Source: a virus (lineage: Duplodnaviria > Heunggongvirae > Uroviricota > Caudoviricetes). From it: 8,946 nt of DNA. A model generated the notes under the pieces. The model was given only the letters and a program-made list of their open reading frames with translations. It searched no databases and was not told the origin of the DNA. Shown in pieces: positions 1,809 to 8,904 of this stretch; the first letter of the stretch is position 1; the number at the start of each line of letters is the position of its first letter. The position numbers and the translations under genes were made by a program. Where the stretch lies: the IMG/VR virus record IMGVR_UViG_2681813154_000005, one strand, 5' to 3'.

Positions 1809-2837
1809 TTATTTCACCTGCACCACCACAAACTCATCCGGATCCGGCAGCACCATCAGCGGCGCGGACTGCGTCATGGTGAATTCACGCGCCGGATCAC
1901 CCACGGTCAGCCAGTGTTTCGGATAACGGGAAGACGCCACCACGCCTTCAGACAATGCCTGCGCATCCTGAATGGCACCGTAGCAACGAATACCCTCTGC
2001 GGCCGTATTTCCCAGTACCAGTGTGCCGTCCGGCAGATAACGTTTTTCGGTACCGTCCTCTGCCACATAGGACGTTTTTGCCACCACGATTGCCAGATCA
2101 CCATAATACCCTTTGAAGGACACCACCGCCCCCAGGTCTTTCACTGCCGTTTCCAGCTGTGAATTTGAGCCACGACGGGTATCCAGTTTTTCGCGGAACA
2201 GCTTAAAGCCATTCAGCAGACGCCAGACCTTACCATCCATAATGGCAATATTGATGGTGCCGGAAGCAAAATCACAGTACGCATCCAGATCATGCGTCGG
2301 ATCAAAGGTATCGCGGTCCTGAGCGCTCCACTCCGTCCCTCCTGCCTGCGTAATGTTATTTCCCACCGACCGGCCAAAATCGACCTCAACAGTTTCAAAC
2401 TGCTCTCCTTCCATGGTGTATTTGCCATACAGCACGGCATTCACCGCCTGCATCTCTTCCACCTGGACAATGGCGTGCTCTTCCTGTTTGAGGTTATCGG
2501 TGATGATACGCAGGCGACGGTAAGCCGGGCCGTTCAGCTGGGCCGGATCTTCACCGGGAAGACGCTCCACCGCCTGCTGGTAATTAAATTCGTGTTTCGG
2601 CTTAACGTAGCCCGGGCGCAGTACACGAGTTTCACCGCCACGGTGACGCAACACCTTTCCTTCAACAACCGGGGAGACATAGGCCGCCACCGGCGTTTTT
2701 CCGGTAATTTTGTCCAGCATTACCTCTTCGGTATGGAAATTCACCGTACGGCGGAAAAACAGCTCCAGAAACAGCGCACGAAATTTAACTTTTTGTTCGG
2801 TATAACCGAGTAACTGGCGGGTCGTAAACAATCCCAT
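1809..2837 (-). CDS. E: major capsid protein (lambda gpE-like)
   Basis: 342-aa ORF (lambda gpE 341 aa) with long collinear matches to recalled gpE: PGYVKPKH, QVEEMQAV, GKYTM.GE.F, NNITQ.GGTEWS, KLDTRRGSNS.LETAVKDLG, TGDPAREFTM.QSAPLM, DPDEFV. ATG at 2837 preceded by AAGGAA. Confidence 0.95.
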   Translation of the reverse strand: MGLFTTRQLLGYTEQKVKFRALFLELFFRRTVNFHTEEVMLDKITGKTPVAAYVSPVVEGKVLRHRGGETRVLRPGYVKPKHEFNYQQAVERLPGEDPAQLNGPAYRRLRIITDNLKQEEHAIVQVEEMQAVNAVLYGKYTMEGEQFETVEVDFGRSVGNNITQAGGTEWSAQDRDTFDPTHDLDAYCDFASGTINIAIMDGKVWRLLNGFKLFREKLDTRRGSNSQLETAVKDLGAVVSFKGYYGDLAIVVAKTSYVAEDGTEKRYLPDGTLVLGNTAAEGIRCYGAIQDAQALSEGVVASSRYPKHWLTVGDPAREFTMTQSAPLMVLPDPDEFVVVQVK

Positions 2838-2894: not shown

Positions 2895-3242
2895 TTACGG
2901 CAGCGCTGCGTGACTCAGGGCACTGCCGGCAAAGGCATTCGCCTTTTTGTGTGTATCCACTCTCTCAGGCCAGTGGATGGCCTCCGTCGCAAAGGTCCCC
3001 GACTTGTAATACGTCAGCACCGTCTCTGTACCTTCAAGCGGCAGTACCAGTATGCCAACCACATGGCCTGCCTTCTGTCCGTCCCAGACCACCAGTTTCC
3101 CGGTATCCTCATCCAGCATCAGGGGCGTCAGAGCCGGTGTTGCCGAGGAAATCCCGCTGCAGCCTGTGGCGGTATGGGCCGGATCATTACCGGCAAAAAT
3201 ACGTACTTCCGCACGCTGTTCAGTGATGGTTTTCGTTACCAT
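2895..3242 (-). CDS. D: head decoration protein (lambda gpD-like)
   Basis: 115-aa ORF (lambda gpD 110 aa) with motifs DPAHTAT, TPLMLD, YKSGTF, AFAG matching recalled gpD. ATG at 3242 preceded by GAGG. Confidence 0.9.
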   Translation of the reverse strand: MVTKTITEQRAEVRIFAGNDPAHTATGCSGISSATPALTPLMLDEDTGKLVVWDGQKAGHVVGILVLPLEGTETVLTYYKSGTFATEAIHWPERVDTHKKANAFAGSALSHAALP

Positions 3243-3278: not shown

Positions 3279-3946
3279 TCATGGCATGGCCATGAGCATT
3301 TTCACGTCCGCATCACCGTCTGCTGACGTCTGTGGCACGCCACCCTGTACCGCTGCCGGTGAATGGTTCGCCATGNNNNNNNNNNNNNNNNNNNNNNNNN
3401 NNNNNNNNNNNNNNNNNNNNNNNNNNNNNNNNNNNNNNNNNNNNNNNNNNNNNNNNNNNNNNNNNNNNNNNNNNNNNNNNNNNNNNNNNNNNNNNNNNNN
3501 NNNNNNNNNNNNNNNNNNNNNNNNNNNNNNNNNNNNNNNNNNNNNNNNNNNNNNNNNNNNNNNNNNNNNNNNNNTTTTGCCTCATCCAGGGCCATAATCT
3601 GATCACGAAGTGAGGGTCCGGCATTCGCCTGCGGTGAAGCAGCCAGAATCGGACGGGCTTTTTCCACCGTCATCTCCGGCATCGCCGCCAGCGTTGCCGC
3701 CAGTTGTTCACGTCCTTTCGCCTCTTCACATGCCATAATGCGATCGGCTTCACTCTGCGCAGATACACCAGATTGTTGCGGTGCCGCCACGGCCAGAATC
3801 GCCCGGGCCTGCTCAACGCTCATACCCTGTTGCCCTGCCAGCATCGTGGCCAGTTGTTCACGTCCTTTCGCTTCCTGACACGTCAGGATCCCCATCACTC
3901 GCTGGTTCTCCTGCGCGGCAGCCTCCGTTGCAGTTAATTGCGGCAT
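3279..3946 (-). CDS. Nu3: candidate nested in-frame scaffolding protein (lambda Nu3-like), sharing the C terminus of C
   Basis: Internal ATG at 3946-3944 in the C frame, preceded by AGGAGG with a 4-nt spacer. The product begins MPQLTATEAAAQENQRVMGIL.C.EAKGRE, matching where lambda Nu3 starts within C (MTKETQ...SRIMGILNCEEAHGREEQ). Interrupted by the N-run. Confidence 0.45.
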
Positions 3947-4849
3947 AGTGCCTCCTGTATCGTGTGTGTTCAGCGTCGCAGCCATCACGCTGATGGCGTC
4001 CGACGCATTGATTAATTCATCCGCCAGTTCGGCCTCAATACCGGACTGACCTTCAAAAACGGCGGCCTCTGTTCCCATAACCGCATCCACAGATAAACCG
4101 GTATACATCGCCACTTTTTCAGCAAACATCCGGCGCGCCGCATCAATGCGCTGCTGCATGTCCTGGCGAACCTTTGCTGGCAGGGATTCAAACTGATTGC
4201 CATCCACCTTGTGCGATCCGGCGTAAATCAGCGTGATATCCACACCGGCCTGTGCCAGATGACCGGCATAGCTGACATGGCCCATCATCACCCCAATGGA
4301 GCCGATACGGGATGTCTGGGTAACCAGCCGTCGGGAGCAGGCCGATGCCAGTAACATGGCGGCTGAACAGGCCGTGTCATTGCACAGTGCCCAGACAGGC
4401 TTCAGCTGCCGGAGACGGTAAATCATGTCAGCGCAGTCAAACGCGCCGGTGGCCTGCCCGCCAGAACTGTCAATGTCCAGCAGTACGCCCCGTACCTGAG
4501 TGTCCGCCATTGCCTGCTGAAGACAGGCGACAATGCCGTCATAGCCAGTCATTCCGGAAAATGGCCGCATGCCACCCAGCCGGTGTACCAGCGTGCCGGT
4601 CACCGGCAGTACAGCAATACCGTTCACCACCCGGTAAACACGGGCAGGTCGTTTGCCTCCGGCCATGTACTCGTCCGTTTCAGCCAGCATCCCGGGAGCG
4701 TCAAGCTGTACCTGCTGTTGCGGTACCGAAAGGCTTGCTGCGCCCATCTCACGCCCGAGCGCGCAAAAGAAAACCCGCGCATAGGCGGGCTCCAGAAGCA
4801 GCGGCTCATTGAATGCCGCAGCGATAATATGTGAAAGATTACGTCTCAC
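3279..4849 (-). CDS. C: capsid assembly protease/scaffold protein (lambda gpC-like, S49/ClpP-like fold), interrupted by a 199-nt N-run
   Basis: The N-terminal 400+ aa (from GTG 4849) match recalled lambda gpC: AFNEPL.LEPAYARVFFCAL, NGIAVLPV.GTLV, SGMTGY.GI, GAFDCAD.I, KPVWAL.ND..CSA..LLASA.SRRLVTQT.R.GSIGVMM, ITLIY.GSHKVDGN. After the N-run the only protein-like frame ends ...AAVQGGVPQTSADGDADVKMLMAMP with stop at 3281-3279, resembling the lambda C terminus (AAGNPASDAVNDLLNTPV). That frame differs from the upstream frame, so the 3' end coordinate is inferred. Confidence 0.75.
3376..3574. other. run of 199 N (assembly gap or masked sequence) inside gene C/Nu3
   Basis: Directly visible. Abuts the third copy of the 150-bp tandem repeat. 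Confidence 1.
3575..3905. repeat. in-frame ~150-bp tandem repeat (at least 2.3 copies visible) within the Nu3/C scaffold region, continuing into the N-run
   Basis: cagttgttcacgtcctttcgc occurs at 3701-3721 and 3851-3871 (exact 150-bp spacing); ggccagaatc / agccagaatc at 3791 and 3641; gccataat at 3732 and 3591. The encoded units are RVMGILTCQEAKGREQLATMLAGQQGMSVEQARAILAVAAPQ, RIMACEEAKGREQLAATLAAMPEMTVEKARPILAASPQ and IMALDEAK..., the last cut by Ns. Confidence 0.8.
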
Positions 4850-6498
4850 GTGATGTTGTCTCCTCTTCCGGCCTGCGACTCTCCGCTATCTGCTGCTGAT
4901 ACGCCTGGGCTATCCACACCGGACGTGAGAGTCCGGCTTTTTCGCGCTCTGCGGATTCCCTGACCTGCTGGCGGAAAATGTCCTGATAATCTTCGCCCAT
5001 CAGTGCCAGTTCTTTCTCATACGTGCTCAGTCCGGCCTCAATGCGCATCACCGATTCCTGGACCTCCTTGAGCCCGTCAATGGCCATTCTTCCGGAGCTA
5101 ATCCACTCTGCCCGTGACCAGGCTGAACGCGCCTGGTAAAAATCAAAACGCGCCCGTGGCGGACGAATAATCCCCCGAAGAAGCGCCTCTTCCAGCCAGN
5201 NNNNNNNNNNNNNNNNNNNNNNNNNNNNNNNNNNNNNNNNNNNNNNNNNNNNNNNNNNNNNNNNNNNNNNNNNNATCTGCGTGGCCAGCCGGGCCGCAAT
5301 AAATTTTCGCCGCCCCATAAAATAGCGCCACGACTCATTGGCGGAGGCGCGGGCACTTGAGTAACTGACCTTCGAGTAATCACGGGACAACTGTTCGTAG
5401 GAAACGCCAAGACCGGCTGCAATATACCGCAGCAGCGCCTGTTCAAGCGCCGAAAATCCATTGTCTGAATCCTGCGCTGTCTGCAGGTTCAGCGCATCGC
5501 CAGGAAAAAAGGTGCGGAATTTTAACACCGCCCAGCGTCACGTTATTCGTGTCATACCAGCGGGTGAACTTCTCCAGAATATTAATAAGCGGATTATCCT
5601 GCTGACCTTGCGGTGCCCCCGCGATATATTCAAATGCCTTTTCGGTATCAAGTTCACTTTCGATTGTGGCTGCATACATCGCCTTCACAATGGCCGACTG
5701 AAGCTGCGTGGCCTGCAGGGAGTCCAGCATCTTCATCCGCTCCATTACGCTGTAAAACTGATTAGCCCCACGGGTCTGCCCGTCCTCCACCGGCTCAAAA
5801 ATATGCAGCATGGCCGGACGCCCGGTGGGAAGCTCACGCGGGATCCGCTCCCAGCGTCCGGCACCAGAGAACGGAAAATCATCCTCACAGATATGGTACG
5901 CAATCGCCCGCCCATACCGATCGACCTCAACCCCGGCCCGCAGAAAGTGGTTCCCCATACCGTGTCCTGGCGTGTCCACCCGTTTCGGACTCACGGCTTT
6001 AAAACGCGTACGGAATAACTGCGTGGTTTCCGTATCCCAGACCGGCTGCACAAAGATTTCGCCGTTAAAGGCATGCACGCCCACCCCTTCACGGATAAAT
6101 TCCGTAAACGTGCGTTTCCCTTCCACGTCGATCTCGCCAAACATTCCTTCTGCGTATTCCGACCAGGCTGCTTCCACCTCCCCGACAAAACTTTTTGCCG
6201 TGGTCTCCCGCATCCCCAGCCAACGCCAGTTCAGACGGTAGCTGATAAGAAACATGTGCCCGACGATATGATCCTTATGCAGGGCCACCGCATTAGCCGC
6301 GATACCGTTATTGCGCACCAGATCATCTGCCCGGGCATTCCCCAGACGCAATGCAGGCAACAGGGCCGCATCGGCACTCTGCGCCGGTGGTAACCACTCT
6401 GCCATTTGCCCGCCAAATCCTGCGCCGCCTCCGTTGTAGCTGAGACTCTCACGAAGCGGAACGCCGTTCACATCAATCAGGACAGGCGTTCGTTTCAT
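4839..6498 (-). pseudogene. B: portal protein (lambda gpB-like), split by a 1-nt frameshift in a homopolymer and containing a 75-nt N-run
   Basis: The N-terminal ORF 5443..6498 (NGGGAGFGGQ, GNARADDLVRNNG, HAFNGE.FVQ, FEPVEDGQTRGAN.FYSVME.MKMLD.LQ.TQLQSAIVKAMYAATIESELDT) and the C-terminal ORF 4839..5528 (PGDALNLQTAQD.DNG, LLRYIAAGLGVSYEQLSR, SGRMAIDGLKEVQE, IEAGLSTYEKE) together cover recalled lambda gpB (533 aa) but are in different frames. Removing one base from the A6 run at 5505-5510 (T6 on the coding strand) restores KIPHLFPGDALNLQ, as in lambda VPHLMPGDSLNLQ. ATG at 6498 overlaps the W stop as ATGA. Confidence 0.8.
5200..5274. other. run of 75 N (assembly gap or masked sequence) inside the portal gene
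   Basis: Directly visible. Confidence 1.
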
Positions 6499-6698
6499 AA
6501 CCTCACTCCCAGCGGTCGGCGGCGTCGGGTCGTACCCAGAACCGACTCCGCATCGTTGATCGCACGGTTAAGCTCATTCAGGGACGCTGCCGTATATTCG
6601 ATCCTGCGACCGTCTTTCTGTACCGACACAACCCGTTTACCGGTTAATAAATCAAGGCGCGCCTGACGCAGCGCCTGCAGTTCAGCGACTGTAACCAT
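6495..6698 (-). CDS. W: head-tail connector / head completion protein (lambda gpW-like)
   Basis: 67-aa ORF MVTVAELQALRQARLDLLTGKRVVSVQKDGRRIEYTAASL...RRRR matches recalled lambda gpW (68 aa; ...[24 protein letters not shown]...QRRR). ATG at 6698 follows the A stop directly; GGAGGAG lies upstream. Confidence 0.92.
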   Translation of the reverse strand: MVTVAELQALRQARLDLLTGKRVVSVQKDGRRIEYTAASLNELNRAINDAESVLGTTRRRRPLGVRL

Positions 6699-8609
6699 TC
6701 ACTCCTCCGGACAGCTTCGCTGCCAGTTCTTCAAGGGTCGGTTGTGCAGTTGCATCCTTGCGGGATGCAACTGCACAGCCAGATCAAGTTGCCAGCGTTG
6801 CACGGACACACGTAATGCCGCATAGGCATACACCAGGCAGTCCAGCGCTTCGTTACGCCGCTTTTTGTTATCCCACAACAGACGCATCTTTCCTTTTTCC
6901 CACTTTTCCACCAGTTCCTCCGCCACCAGTTGTTGTGCCTCTGTCTGCGAAAAAATCTCCGGATTATCAGGAAAGCGGATGGCATACGATGTGGCCTCAT
7001 TCACAGGGGTGGGATCGGCCTTCATTCGGGCATAGAGAATTTCTTTTGCGGTATCCGTCCCCACCTCACACAGATACACACCCCGCTGATTGCGGGTTTT
7101 CGGCATGGTGATCACCGGCTTGCCATAGACAGAGGCACCTTTTACCGGCAGTACCCGGAAAATACCGTGTTTTTTTGACCTCTGATACACGATTTCGCCA
7201 TCGATCCCCCCGATATCCCAGCAGACACGGGAAATGGTCATTTCGGTACCGTCTGCATGGCGGTATTTTTTATTGATCGCCGCATCCACACGTAACAGCG
7301 TCTCTTCCTCATCAGGACGTCCCATGATGATGATTTTATCCACCAGAAAGGCTTCCTCTCCCGGAGCCCACCCCCAGACATACATCTCAAAACGGTTTCG
7401 CTGCGAGTCAATGCCCGCCGTCAGATAAACCACCCGGACAGGCACCGTTGCCGTGTAAGGCACAACCTTATCCATCAGTACCTGGTGATCGAGTTTTTCG
7501 CCCACGGCCTCTTCCCAGGTCTCGCCCAGCGTGGTGTTCACAAAAGTTTTCACGCCGTTGGGATCTTTCAGTGCATCCAGCCAGTCACAGACTATCTGTA
7601 CCCTGGTGGTGAACGGACTGTACGCCGTCCATATATGGAAAGTGATGGAGCGCGGCGGCGGAATTTCATTACCCGAAGCACTGAAAAACGTCAGACCGTC
7701 ACACGTCCACATCCCGGTATTGTCACAAATCCAGCGCCCCCCGGTCTGATCAAGTTCAGACTGACGGATCACGCAGCCATTATGTTCACACAGGTAATAC
7801 ACCGTTTCCGGTTTACCCTTCTCCCATTTCAGGCCAAACGACGTCGCATCATCGCCAAACTTCAGATACTGCTCCTCCCCGCAATGAGGGCAAGGGACAT
7901 AAAACCGCATGAAATGCGCAGATTCATTCGCAGCTTTTTCAATCTGACAGGAGCCTTTAATTTTTGGCGTTGAACCGCGTATGGATTTTGGCCATACCGA
8001 ACCTTCAATACGTTTATCGCCAAGCAGTGTTGGCGAACCTTCTTTTTCCACATCCGGTTCAAACGAGGAGAGTTCGTCATAGCAGACCACATCGACAGAT
8101 TTTTCACGGTAGTTTTTGGCAGCAGCACCACCCAAACACCAGAACCCCACACCAGAGGAAAAACGCTTCAGTGTGAGCGTATTATCCCGGTGTTTCCGGC
8201 CCAGCCAGGGAGAAAGTTTTTTCAGGCAAGGAACATCACGAATTGTTGCTTCCACGTGAGACTTCATAAAATCTTCAGCAGCTGAGTCCGTCGGCTGAAA
8301 AAGAAGAGTGTTGCGGGATTTGTGCTCAATAAAATACCCGATCACACCAAGCACCATTTTTGTATAACCAACACGGGCAGATTTAATCAGGTTAACTGTA
8401 CGAATCTCGTCATTGCCCATGCAGTTCATGATGGCGACCTGAAACTGCAGCGTTTTCCATTCCCCCTCACCGTATGACGATTCTTTAGGCAGGTAATAAT
8501 TTTGATCGGCCCATTCTACAGCCGTCACCGGCAATACCCTGACCAGTGGCTGCAGTGCGATAGTGACTGCCACCATCATATTACTCAGTTGTTGTTCTGA
8601 TATATTCAT
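6699..8609 (-). CDS. A: terminase large subunit (lambda gpA-like)
   Basis: From ATG 8609 the product (MNISEQQL...TAVEWAD.NYYLPKES, 636 aa) is collinear with recalled lambda gpA (641 aa, MNISNSQV...) along its whole length: KSARVGY.KM.LGV, DNTLT.KRF, GFWCLGG.AAKNYREKSVDV, GSPT.LGDKRIEGSVWPKSIRGSTPK, CPHCGEEQYLKFGD, FHIWTAYSPFTT, TFVNTTLGETWE, YLTAGIDSQ, SKKHG.FRV.P.KGASVYGKP, WD.KKRRNEALDC. The track's 8666 start is a 19-codon extension inside the Nu1 overlap. Confidence 0.95.
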   Translation of the reverse strand: MNISEQQLSNMMVAVTIALQPLVRVLPVTAVEWADQNYYLPKESSYGEGEWKTLQFQVAIMNCMGNDEIRTVNLIKSARVGYTKMVLGVIGYFIEHKSRNTLLFQPTDSAAEDFMKSHVEATIRDVPCLKKLSPWLGRKHRDNTLTLKRFSSGVGFWCLGGAAAKNYREKSVDVVCYDELSSFEPDVEKEGSPTLLGDKRIEGSVWPKSIRGSTPKIKGSCQIEKAANESAHFMRFYVPCPHCGEEQYLKFGDDATSFGLKWEKGKPETVYYLCEHNGCVIRQSELDQTGGRWICDNTGMWTCDGLTFFSASGNEIPPPRSITFHIWTAYSPFTTRVQIVCDWLDALKDPNGVKTFVNTTLGETWEEAVGEKLDHQVLMDKVVPYTATVPVRVVYLTAGIDSQRNRFEMYVWGWAPGEEAFLVDKIIIMGRPDEEETLLRVDAAINKKYRHADGTEMTISRVCWDIGGIDGEIVYQRSKKHGIFRVLPVKGASVYGKPVITMPKTRNQRGVYLCEVGTDTAKEILYARMKADPTPVNEATSYAIRFPDNPEIFSQTEAQQLVAEELVEKWEKGKMRLLWDNKKRRNEALDCLVYAYAALRVSVQRWQLDLAVQLHPARMQLHNRPLKNWQRSCPEE

Positions 8610-8904
8610 CGAGTAAATCCGGTAATTTATCCCCCGCACGCGCGCACTGATTCGCTCCCTTAGCAATAAGGATTTTCAGATGATCAATATGACGCGGCGT
8701 TAAATCCGGGAACTGTCGTTGCATGGACAAAGGAATGGAGTCAAGCGTACTGGATAAAGCCATCGCCAGCTTACTAAGGGCAAAAATACAAAATCCGGTA
8801 TCGATAAGATTTCCTTTTGACACCTGATTTTTTAACTGCTGTGCGACAGCCTGTTCTGCGGTCAGTTCCCATCTGGCAATGAGTAGTTTGAGGTGTACTG
8901 GCAA
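8581..8904 (-). pseudogene. Nu1: terminase small subunit (lambda Nu1-like), C-terminal fragment lacking the N-terminal DNA-binding domain
   Basis: The ORF matches only roughly the C-terminal 100 aa of recalled lambda Nu1 (181 aa): ELTAEQAVAQQLKN...FCIFALSKLA...LDSIPLSMQRQFPDL..RHIDHLK...LLDEYI versus RLTRAQADAQELKN...FCTFVLSRIA...LDGLPLSVQRRFPEL.NRHVDFLK...LLSEYI. An in-frame TAG at 8916-8914 lies just upstream; there is no ATG, and the frame opens with TTG. Its 3' end overlaps the A start, as in lambda. Confidence 0.7.

Follow-up and report, generated by a model that had tools for sequence, protein, structure and literature searches.

The repeated sequence in the scaffold gene of the stretch of phage DNA analysed here (the window, 8,946 nt of a Caudoviricetes virus, IMG/VR record IMGVR_UViG_2681813154_000005) is very probably the part of a head gene of the phage 21 type that encodes the scaffold. 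Its product carries three copies of the Nu3 module, in an arrangement that is ancient, fixed and under purifying selection, and that may allow each scaffold molecule to make multivalent contacts. The three-module gene is a known and widespread architecture, that of a classical phage whose head genes were sequenced long ago.

Every long open reading frame of the window lies on the minus strand, and together they make up a lambda-type head module (Table 1), which also includes homologues of FI, FII, Z and U. The gene order, portal, protease, decoration protein, major capsid protein, FI and FII, was read from the window's open reading frames and from the annotation of near-identical closed genomes. 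The protease/scaffold gene thus lies between the portal and the decoration and major capsid genes, the position expected of a gene of the C/Nu3 type. It starts at a GTG at 4849 and ends at a TGA stop at 3281..3279 (minus strand). Its apparent length of 1571 nt includes a run of 199 N; the true length is 1506 nt (501 aa), and the closed genome of E. coli ECMA0423 encodes the identical 501-aa protein. RefSeq labels the gene 'S49 family peptidase'. The S49 (SppA-like) domain is N-terminal: Pfam Peptidase_S49 (PF01343) matches residues 147-292 with E = 2.3e-33, SppA structures match at E = 4e-15, and phrog_53 covers the protein over its full length (E = 8e-226). A putative internal start, AGGAGG-N4-ATG, is present at 3956..3944 on the minus strand, with the ATG at 3946..3944 in frame with the protease. 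The product read from this ATG starts MPQLTATEAAAQ, and its true length is 200 aa.

Table 1. Coordinates of the head genes, scaffold features and runs of N in the window
Feature	Position	Strand	Basis
Large terminase	8666..6699	-	ORF list
W homologue	6698..6495	-	ORF list
Portal, split	6498..4839	-	ORF list
Head maturation protease/scaffold gene, phage 21 gp5 / lambda C homologue	3279..4849	-	ORF and translation
Shine-Dalgarno AGGAGG, 4 nt 5' of internal ATG	3951..3956	-	Read directly; RBS annotated at the corresponding phage 21 site
Putative nested in-frame scaffolding protein gene, phage 21 gp6 / lambda Nu3 homologue	3279..3946	-	Translation, phage 21 annotation
Repeat unit 1, 46 aa, ENQRVMGILTCQEAKGREQLATMLAGQQGMSVEQARAILAVAAPQQ	3910..3773	-	Translation, unit alignment
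Repeat unit 2, 43 aa, EADRIMACEEAKGREQLAATLAAMPEMTVEKARPILAASPQAN	3751..3623	-	Translation, unit alignment, BLASTP
Repeat unit 3, 43 aa	3482..3610, lower coordinate nominal	-	First 12 codons visible, remaining 93 nt inside the N-run
C-terminal tail, conserved, visible part (MANHSPAAVQGG...DADVKMLMAMP)	3282..3375	-	Alignment; lambda counterpart ...DRLMQGAPAPLAAG...DLLNTPV
N-run 1, 199 N, standing for 134 nt of real sequence (rest of unit 3 and start of C-terminal tail)	3376..3574	.	Closed genomes
N-run 2, 75 N, in portal gene, standing for 9 nt (CAGGAAAAC)	5200-5274	.	Closed genomes L005, L007
Decoration protein	3242..2895	-	ORF list
Major capsid protein	2837..1809	-	ORF list

Two repeat units are complete in the window, and the visible start of the third (LRDQIMALDEAK, 3610..3575, minus strand) directly adjoins the first N-run. 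Units 1 and 2 are 63% identical by BLASTP (E = 2e-14), and the lambda Nu3 profile, phrog_8399 'head scaffolding protein', finds three distinct segments of the completed protein (E = 9.6e-35), so that chance cannot account for the repeat. The original prediction that the scaffold motif of Nu3/C occurs in frame at least twice in full, with the beginning of a further copy, was borne out by the translation and by phrog_8399. Its identical DNA cores of 20-24 nt were also found, the longest exact word common to the units being the 23-nt sequence GCGAAAGGACGTGAACAACTGGC, in units 1 and 2. The motif is followed by a conserved C-terminal tail, recognized by alignment with lambda, phage 21 and Gifsy-1, which reads ...STTAMFEHF/MANHSPAAVQGG...DADVKMLMAMP across the gap edge (slash); motif and tail together are as in a C/Nu3-type gene.

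At the DNA level, a repeat search of the window gave direct repeats of 94 nt at 73% identity with a spacing of 150, and of 30 nt at 73% identity with a spacing of 141. Tandem Repeats Finder (TRF) reported zero arrays, both in the window and in the gap-free ECMA0423 sequence. The lack of an array, together with the 73% DNA identity of the units, indicates a diverged repeat at the protein level and not a tandem array of DNA. The repeat family is absent from Pfam and NCBIfam. DUF7178 was considered as the repeat family and was dismissed, as the match was weak (E = 0.12).

The sequence hidden by the gap was recovered by comparison with four closed genomes, E. coli O121 201805972 (L001), FDAARGOS_943 (L005) and ECMA0423 (L006), and Shigella flexneri SFBU1023 (L007). 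Across the gap flanks, identity to the window is 100% for L001, L006 and L007 and about 98% for L005 (flanking blocks); L006 and L007 reach 99.9-100% over all that they cover. In all four genomes 134 nt take the place of the 199 N, with the same fill in L006 and L007. Whereas 134 nt keep the reading frame, 199 nt would break it, which shows that the N-run does not reflect the real size of the gap. The completed unit 3 is IMALDEAKGAEAQAEKLAACPGMTVENARAVLAAASGRA, and its fill is the same in L001, L006 and L007. In both N-runs of the window the run exceeds the true sequence by 65-66 nt; this common excess seems to stem from the scaffolding software.

When the completed scaffold part was used in a tblastn search of phage genomes, it matched Escherichia phage 21 over its full length with 93.5% identity. 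The phage 21 record (OL657228, CPT_21_05/06) annotates a 'capsid protease/scaffolding protein' with a nested 'scaffolding protein' coding sequence that has its own annotated RBS. Phage 21 gp5 and gp6 resemble the window gene throughout: they are 501 and 200 aa long, with the same putative internal RBS and ATG, three units and the tail, and they have the same neighbours, namely the portal, the decoration protein and the major capsid protein. The two copies differ in a few percent of residues. The complete genome of phage 21 has been described (PMC9119081). Unlike phage 21, the window copy is a chromosomal prophage with 1-nt insertions or deletions in its portal and terminase genes.

The gpC homologue of the Salmonella phage Gifsy-1, STM2605, also has three units in the same order; its record cites UniProt 'VG05_BPP21 ... 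GP5 [Contains: Scaffold protein GP6]'. The scaffold parts are 57% identical, and each Gifsy-1 unit is orthologous to the corresponding 21-type unit: unit 1 is 72%, unit 2 is 77% and unit 3 is 60% identical to its counterpart, whereas non-corresponding pairs are only 40-53% identical, and units within a single protein 42-53%. As corresponding units are closer to each other than paralogous ones, the triplication is older than the divergence of these phages of E. coli and Salmonella. In a Nei-Gojobori count, pN was 0.18, 0.22 and 0.25 for units 1 to 3 as against 0.18 for the protease domain, with pS at about 0.7, so that synonymous sites are near saturation. On these counts the constraint on every unit matches that on the protease domain, which points to purifying selection. 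The region is present in 1870 of 5426 complete E. coli genomes (about a third). Sixty complete genomes were taken from records sampled evenly down the ranking, and 58 of them contain the full-length region in one aligned piece. The orthology of the units and the constraint on each of them indicate that the triplication is old, fixed and functional, and is neither a local expansion nor an artefact.

Phage lambda has the same type of gene, with an S49 protease (gpC) and a nested, co-terminal scaffold (gpNu3), the same module family, the tail motif and the same gene order. Lambda has one unit, in proteins of 439 and 131 aa with a leader about 36 aa longer, whereas the 21-type proteins have three units and a short leader. 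The lambda motif, single according to the original prediction, does occur once in gpC of J02459. In the tblastn search lambda matched only residues 7-71 of the scaffold query, equivalent to one unit, and in a four-way alignment lambda gpC likewise had a single unit, against three each in Gifsy-1, phage 21 and the O121 prophage. The alignment of units with Nu3/C homologues that the prediction proposed thus showed units orthologous to those of Gifsy-1, with one in lambda and three in phage 21. MAFFT placed 'DRLMQGAPA' of lambda on the start of unit 2, suggesting a vestigial second unit; this was rejected, because the segment corresponds to the conserved tail helix, as seen in the single-unit proteins P0091 and P0094.

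The distribution of unit number in the wider family was examined with a profile made from 19 units, which was searched against 1.84 billion representative proteins (E ≤ 0.001) and found 1414 clusters. Among the best 150 of these 1414 clusters, 138 have one unit, nine have two and three have three; several of the nine two-unit representatives are fragments of three-unit proteins. Since summed scores put multi-unit proteins first, the share of multi-unit proteins in the remaining clusters is probably lower still. The units lie near the C-terminal end of protease fusions of about 420-550 aa, or in stand-alone scaffold proteins of about 110-200 aa. There is thus a natural series, with one module in lambda and most of its relatives, two in rare deletion variants, three in phage 21 and Gifsy-1, and four in one E. 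coli prophage lineage.

AlphaFold2 (AF2) predicted three helices per unit, with a pLDDT of 82.5 for unit 1 alone and of 75-81 for units within gp6. The structure prediction proposed at the outset for the repeat unit thus yielded a three-helix module. In the gp6 model the linkers have pLDDT values below 60, and the pTM is 0.27. The unit and gp6 models are only moderately confident; they suggest that gp6 resembles beads on a string, with modules predicted to fold independently on flexible linkers. The invariant and near-invariant positions of the unit form a small hydrophobic core and an exposed Lys-Gly-Arg-Glu turn. Unit 3 of the 21 type reads GAE in place of the GRE turn found in almost all other units, including unit 3 of Gifsy-1, and binding by the 21-type unit 3 may therefore be weaker or different. 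A profile search of the PDB with the unit gave chance matches only, for example to a haemoglobin, and no relative by sequence. When the single-unit and gp6 models were compared with the PDB by Foldseek, no match had E ≤ 0.001, and none fell below E = 3. A 24-residue chain of a large assembly, 9hqv_Un, contains AKGREALAEK, the most conserved part of the unit; its match (E = 0.28) is too short to judge.

The scaffolds of P22 and phi29 bind the N-arm of the capsid protein through a small helical motif (PMC11922011). The coat-binding helix-turn-helix of P22 gp8 and the motif of phi29 gp7 offer an analogy only: in each case a small helical part of the scaffold, with basic residues on its surface, makes contact with the capsid protein (PMC11922011). 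P22 has just one such element, located at the very C-terminus, whereas the Nu3 module here is repeated and is followed by a further conserved tail. No similarity to a P22-type coat-binding domain was found by sequence or by fold, with a query of 46 aa, a length that limits sensitivity.

Nu3 of lambda is an essential scaffold that is degraded by C (PMC3224144, PMC10695390), and C and Nu3 are both essential (PMC10695390). Nu3 interacts with E, with itself, with C and with B (PMC3224144), and a single gene encodes protease and scaffold (PMC8508860, citing Shaw and Murialdo 1980). In gp5 (501 aa) the scaffold domain comes after an S49 serine protease, and the internal Shine-Dalgarno sequence and ATG would direct synthesis, in the same frame, of gp6 (200 aa), a Nu3-type scaffolding protein that, by homology with lambda, would act in procapsid assembly. 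The scaffold domain comprises a short leader, three modules of about 43-46 aa on linkers predicted to be flexible, and the conserved tail. As the module is common to protease and scaffold across the whole family, it may be a co-assembly element that brings both into the procapsid, where they would associate with the capsid protein and with each other. Three modules could then provide up to three contacts per gp6 or gp5 molecule, giving higher avidity or cross-linking, and the protease would subsequently degrade the scaffold, as it does in lambda.

The main rival explanation is that units 2 and 3 are spacers. According to this explanation, one unit or the tail alone would make the specific contacts, and units 2 and 3 would set the length or flexibility of the scaffold, replacing the long low-complexity leader of lambda Nu3. 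In its favour are the long leader and single unit of lambda Nu3 beside the short leader and three units of the 21 type, and the loss of the near-invariant Arg from unit 3. The major capsid proteins of lambda and the window are also very similar (E = 3e-137); lambda builds its capsid with one unit, and three units are therefore not required by this type of capsid. Every unit, however, keeps the invariant positions of the family and is as constrained as the protease domain, whereas drift like that of the linkers would be expected in a mere spacer. The spacer explanation is thus weakened by the purifying selection on all of the units, and we consider it unlikely.

If the modules make contacts, the number of Nu3 modules might set the valency of the scaffold and protease for the capsid lattice, although we regard this as a tentative and somewhat doubtful proposal. 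The module is discrete and occurs one to four times in otherwise very similar lambda-like head modules, and could offer a handle on scaffold valency. Were the proposal true, the one-to-four series could be used to test valency control of procapsid nucleation, of fidelity or of the scaffold-to-capsid stoichiometry. The assembly system is a classical one, its scaffold is without a solved structure, and the series is only a mildly new angle on it. Literature searched for repeats in Nu3 or gpNu3, or for phage 21, did not mention the triplication; the first paper on the head genes of phage 21, reportedly that of Smith and Feiss 1993 (Gene 126:1), fell outside this search.

The original prediction regarded the repeat as a tandem expansion, prone to recombination, and as the likely cause of the adjacent assembly gap. 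A recent, strain-specific and unstable expansion, driven by recombination, might have broken the assembly as well. Changes in unit number do occur in the family. Three rare 21-type variants with two units, P0021, P0019 and P0015, have in-register junctions and in-frame loss of a unit, with 1-3 member sequences each; P0021 is an exact hybrid of units 1 and 2. In a further 21-type variant, P0081, also with 1-3 member sequences, the whole repeat region is missing. The two-unit variants and P0081 may be genuine alleles or errors of assembly. In another, separate lineage of E. coli prophages, with four units (P0024, 48 member sequences), units 2-4 are 79-84% identical, and TRF calls a 138-nt array of 3.7 copies (GCA_032727965.1, contig ABNWJB010000046.1, L008 1-1043). 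The four-unit lineage therefore has a DNA tandem-repeat locus, in the gene context S49 - gpD - gpE - FI - FII, and its sequence points to recent amplification or concerted evolution. None of the isolated phages in the collection searched has the four-unit form.

The window lineage differs from this. TRF finds no array in it, its units are 73% identical in DNA, and 58 of the 60 sampled genomes have the region at the same length, so that it does not behave as a copy-number-variable tandem locus. Its units are orthologous across E. coli and Salmonella phages and under purifying selection. Three units are standard in phage 21 gp5/gp6 and Gifsy-1, and about one in three complete E. coli genomes has them. 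What remains of the predicted proneness to recombination is the rare in-register two-unit variants and the four-unit lineage; the window lineage itself is essentially fixed. Judged from these sequences, unequal recombination does add and remove units in the family, but such events are rare and have not affected the window's lineage. A recent expansion in the window is accordingly highly improbable. For annotation, the gene is a standard phage 21-type C/Nu3 gene in which the N-run hides 134 nt of ordinary sequence, with no copy-number anomaly.

Nor is there support for the repeat as the origin of the gap. Within the window the hidden 134 nt occur only once, and they have no exact word of more than 12 nt in common with its remaining sequence. 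The 23-nt core, the longest exact repeat, sits in units 1 and 2, outside the gap, and both of these units were assembled cleanly. The second N-run, which hides 9 nt, lies in non-repeated portal sequence. Thousands of database copies of the protein end at contig ends, and many start or stop inside units 1-2 (gp5 residues ~327-391, window ~3870-3680), the latter a point in favour of the repeat; this survey was biased, in that only proteins overlapping the query could be found. One contig family of 382 members ends at about residue 469, which corresponds to the right edge of the window gap (~3376), and it is there that prophage alleles differ (FEHF or FERI). Up to five copies of the gene are present per genome, with 90-95% identity. 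The truncated copies, the position of the gap edge and the several copies per genome fit branching of the assembly graph between co-resident prophage alleles, which we offer as a lead and not as proof.

The DNA cores could alternatively have a regulatory role, for instance as CII-type TTGY-N6-TTGY boxes of the other strand, and not be a by-product of the protein repeat. The phage 21 record annotates two matches to TTGYN6TTGY here, on the strand opposite the scaffold gene (L003 1506-1519 and 1740-1753), the second of which lies in the unit 2 core and corresponds to window ~3694-3707 (plus strand). These are pattern matches only, probably arising by chance, and the unit 1 core has none. Conservation of the cores tracks the codons and the protein motif across distant phages, while synonymous sites are saturated, and there is only a very slim chance that the cores are regulatory.

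The last alternative, raised in the original prediction as the result that would overturn it, is that mis-joined or duplicated reads produced the repeat from a single real copy of the motif; although the window is draft sequence interrupted by N at 3376-3574 and 5200-5274, this can be discounted almost completely, because the same three units are present in the closed genomes L001, L005, L006 and L007 and in phage 21 and Gifsy-1, and because the units differ by about 50% in protein sequence, which duplicated reads could not produce.

An insertion sequence in the gap was also considered and rejected. The prophage of FDAARGOS_943 contains ISEc60, an IS4-like element (L005 1323-2513), which lies between the Z and FII homologues and not in gene C; this prophage is otherwise 98.5% identical to the window, which does not contain ISEc60. 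Two other genes of the window head module, both on the minus strand, carry single-nucleotide changes relative to FDAARGOS_943. In the portal gene, one extra A in an A-run at window 5505 splits the open reading frame into pieces of 351 and 229 aa. The extra A is also present in the complete S. flexneri SFBU1023 genome, and reflects either a real pseudogene in a defective prophage or a homopolymer error common to both sequences. In the large terminase gene, a 1-nt deletion at window 6773, outside homopolymers and found likewise in SFBU1023 (L007), replaces the last ~30 residues. The C-terminal end of the lambda terminase large subunit, gpA, binds the prohead, and the window enzyme may therefore be inactive. 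With 1-nt insertions or deletions in both the portal and the large terminase genes, the scaffold gene may be out of use in this particular prophage.
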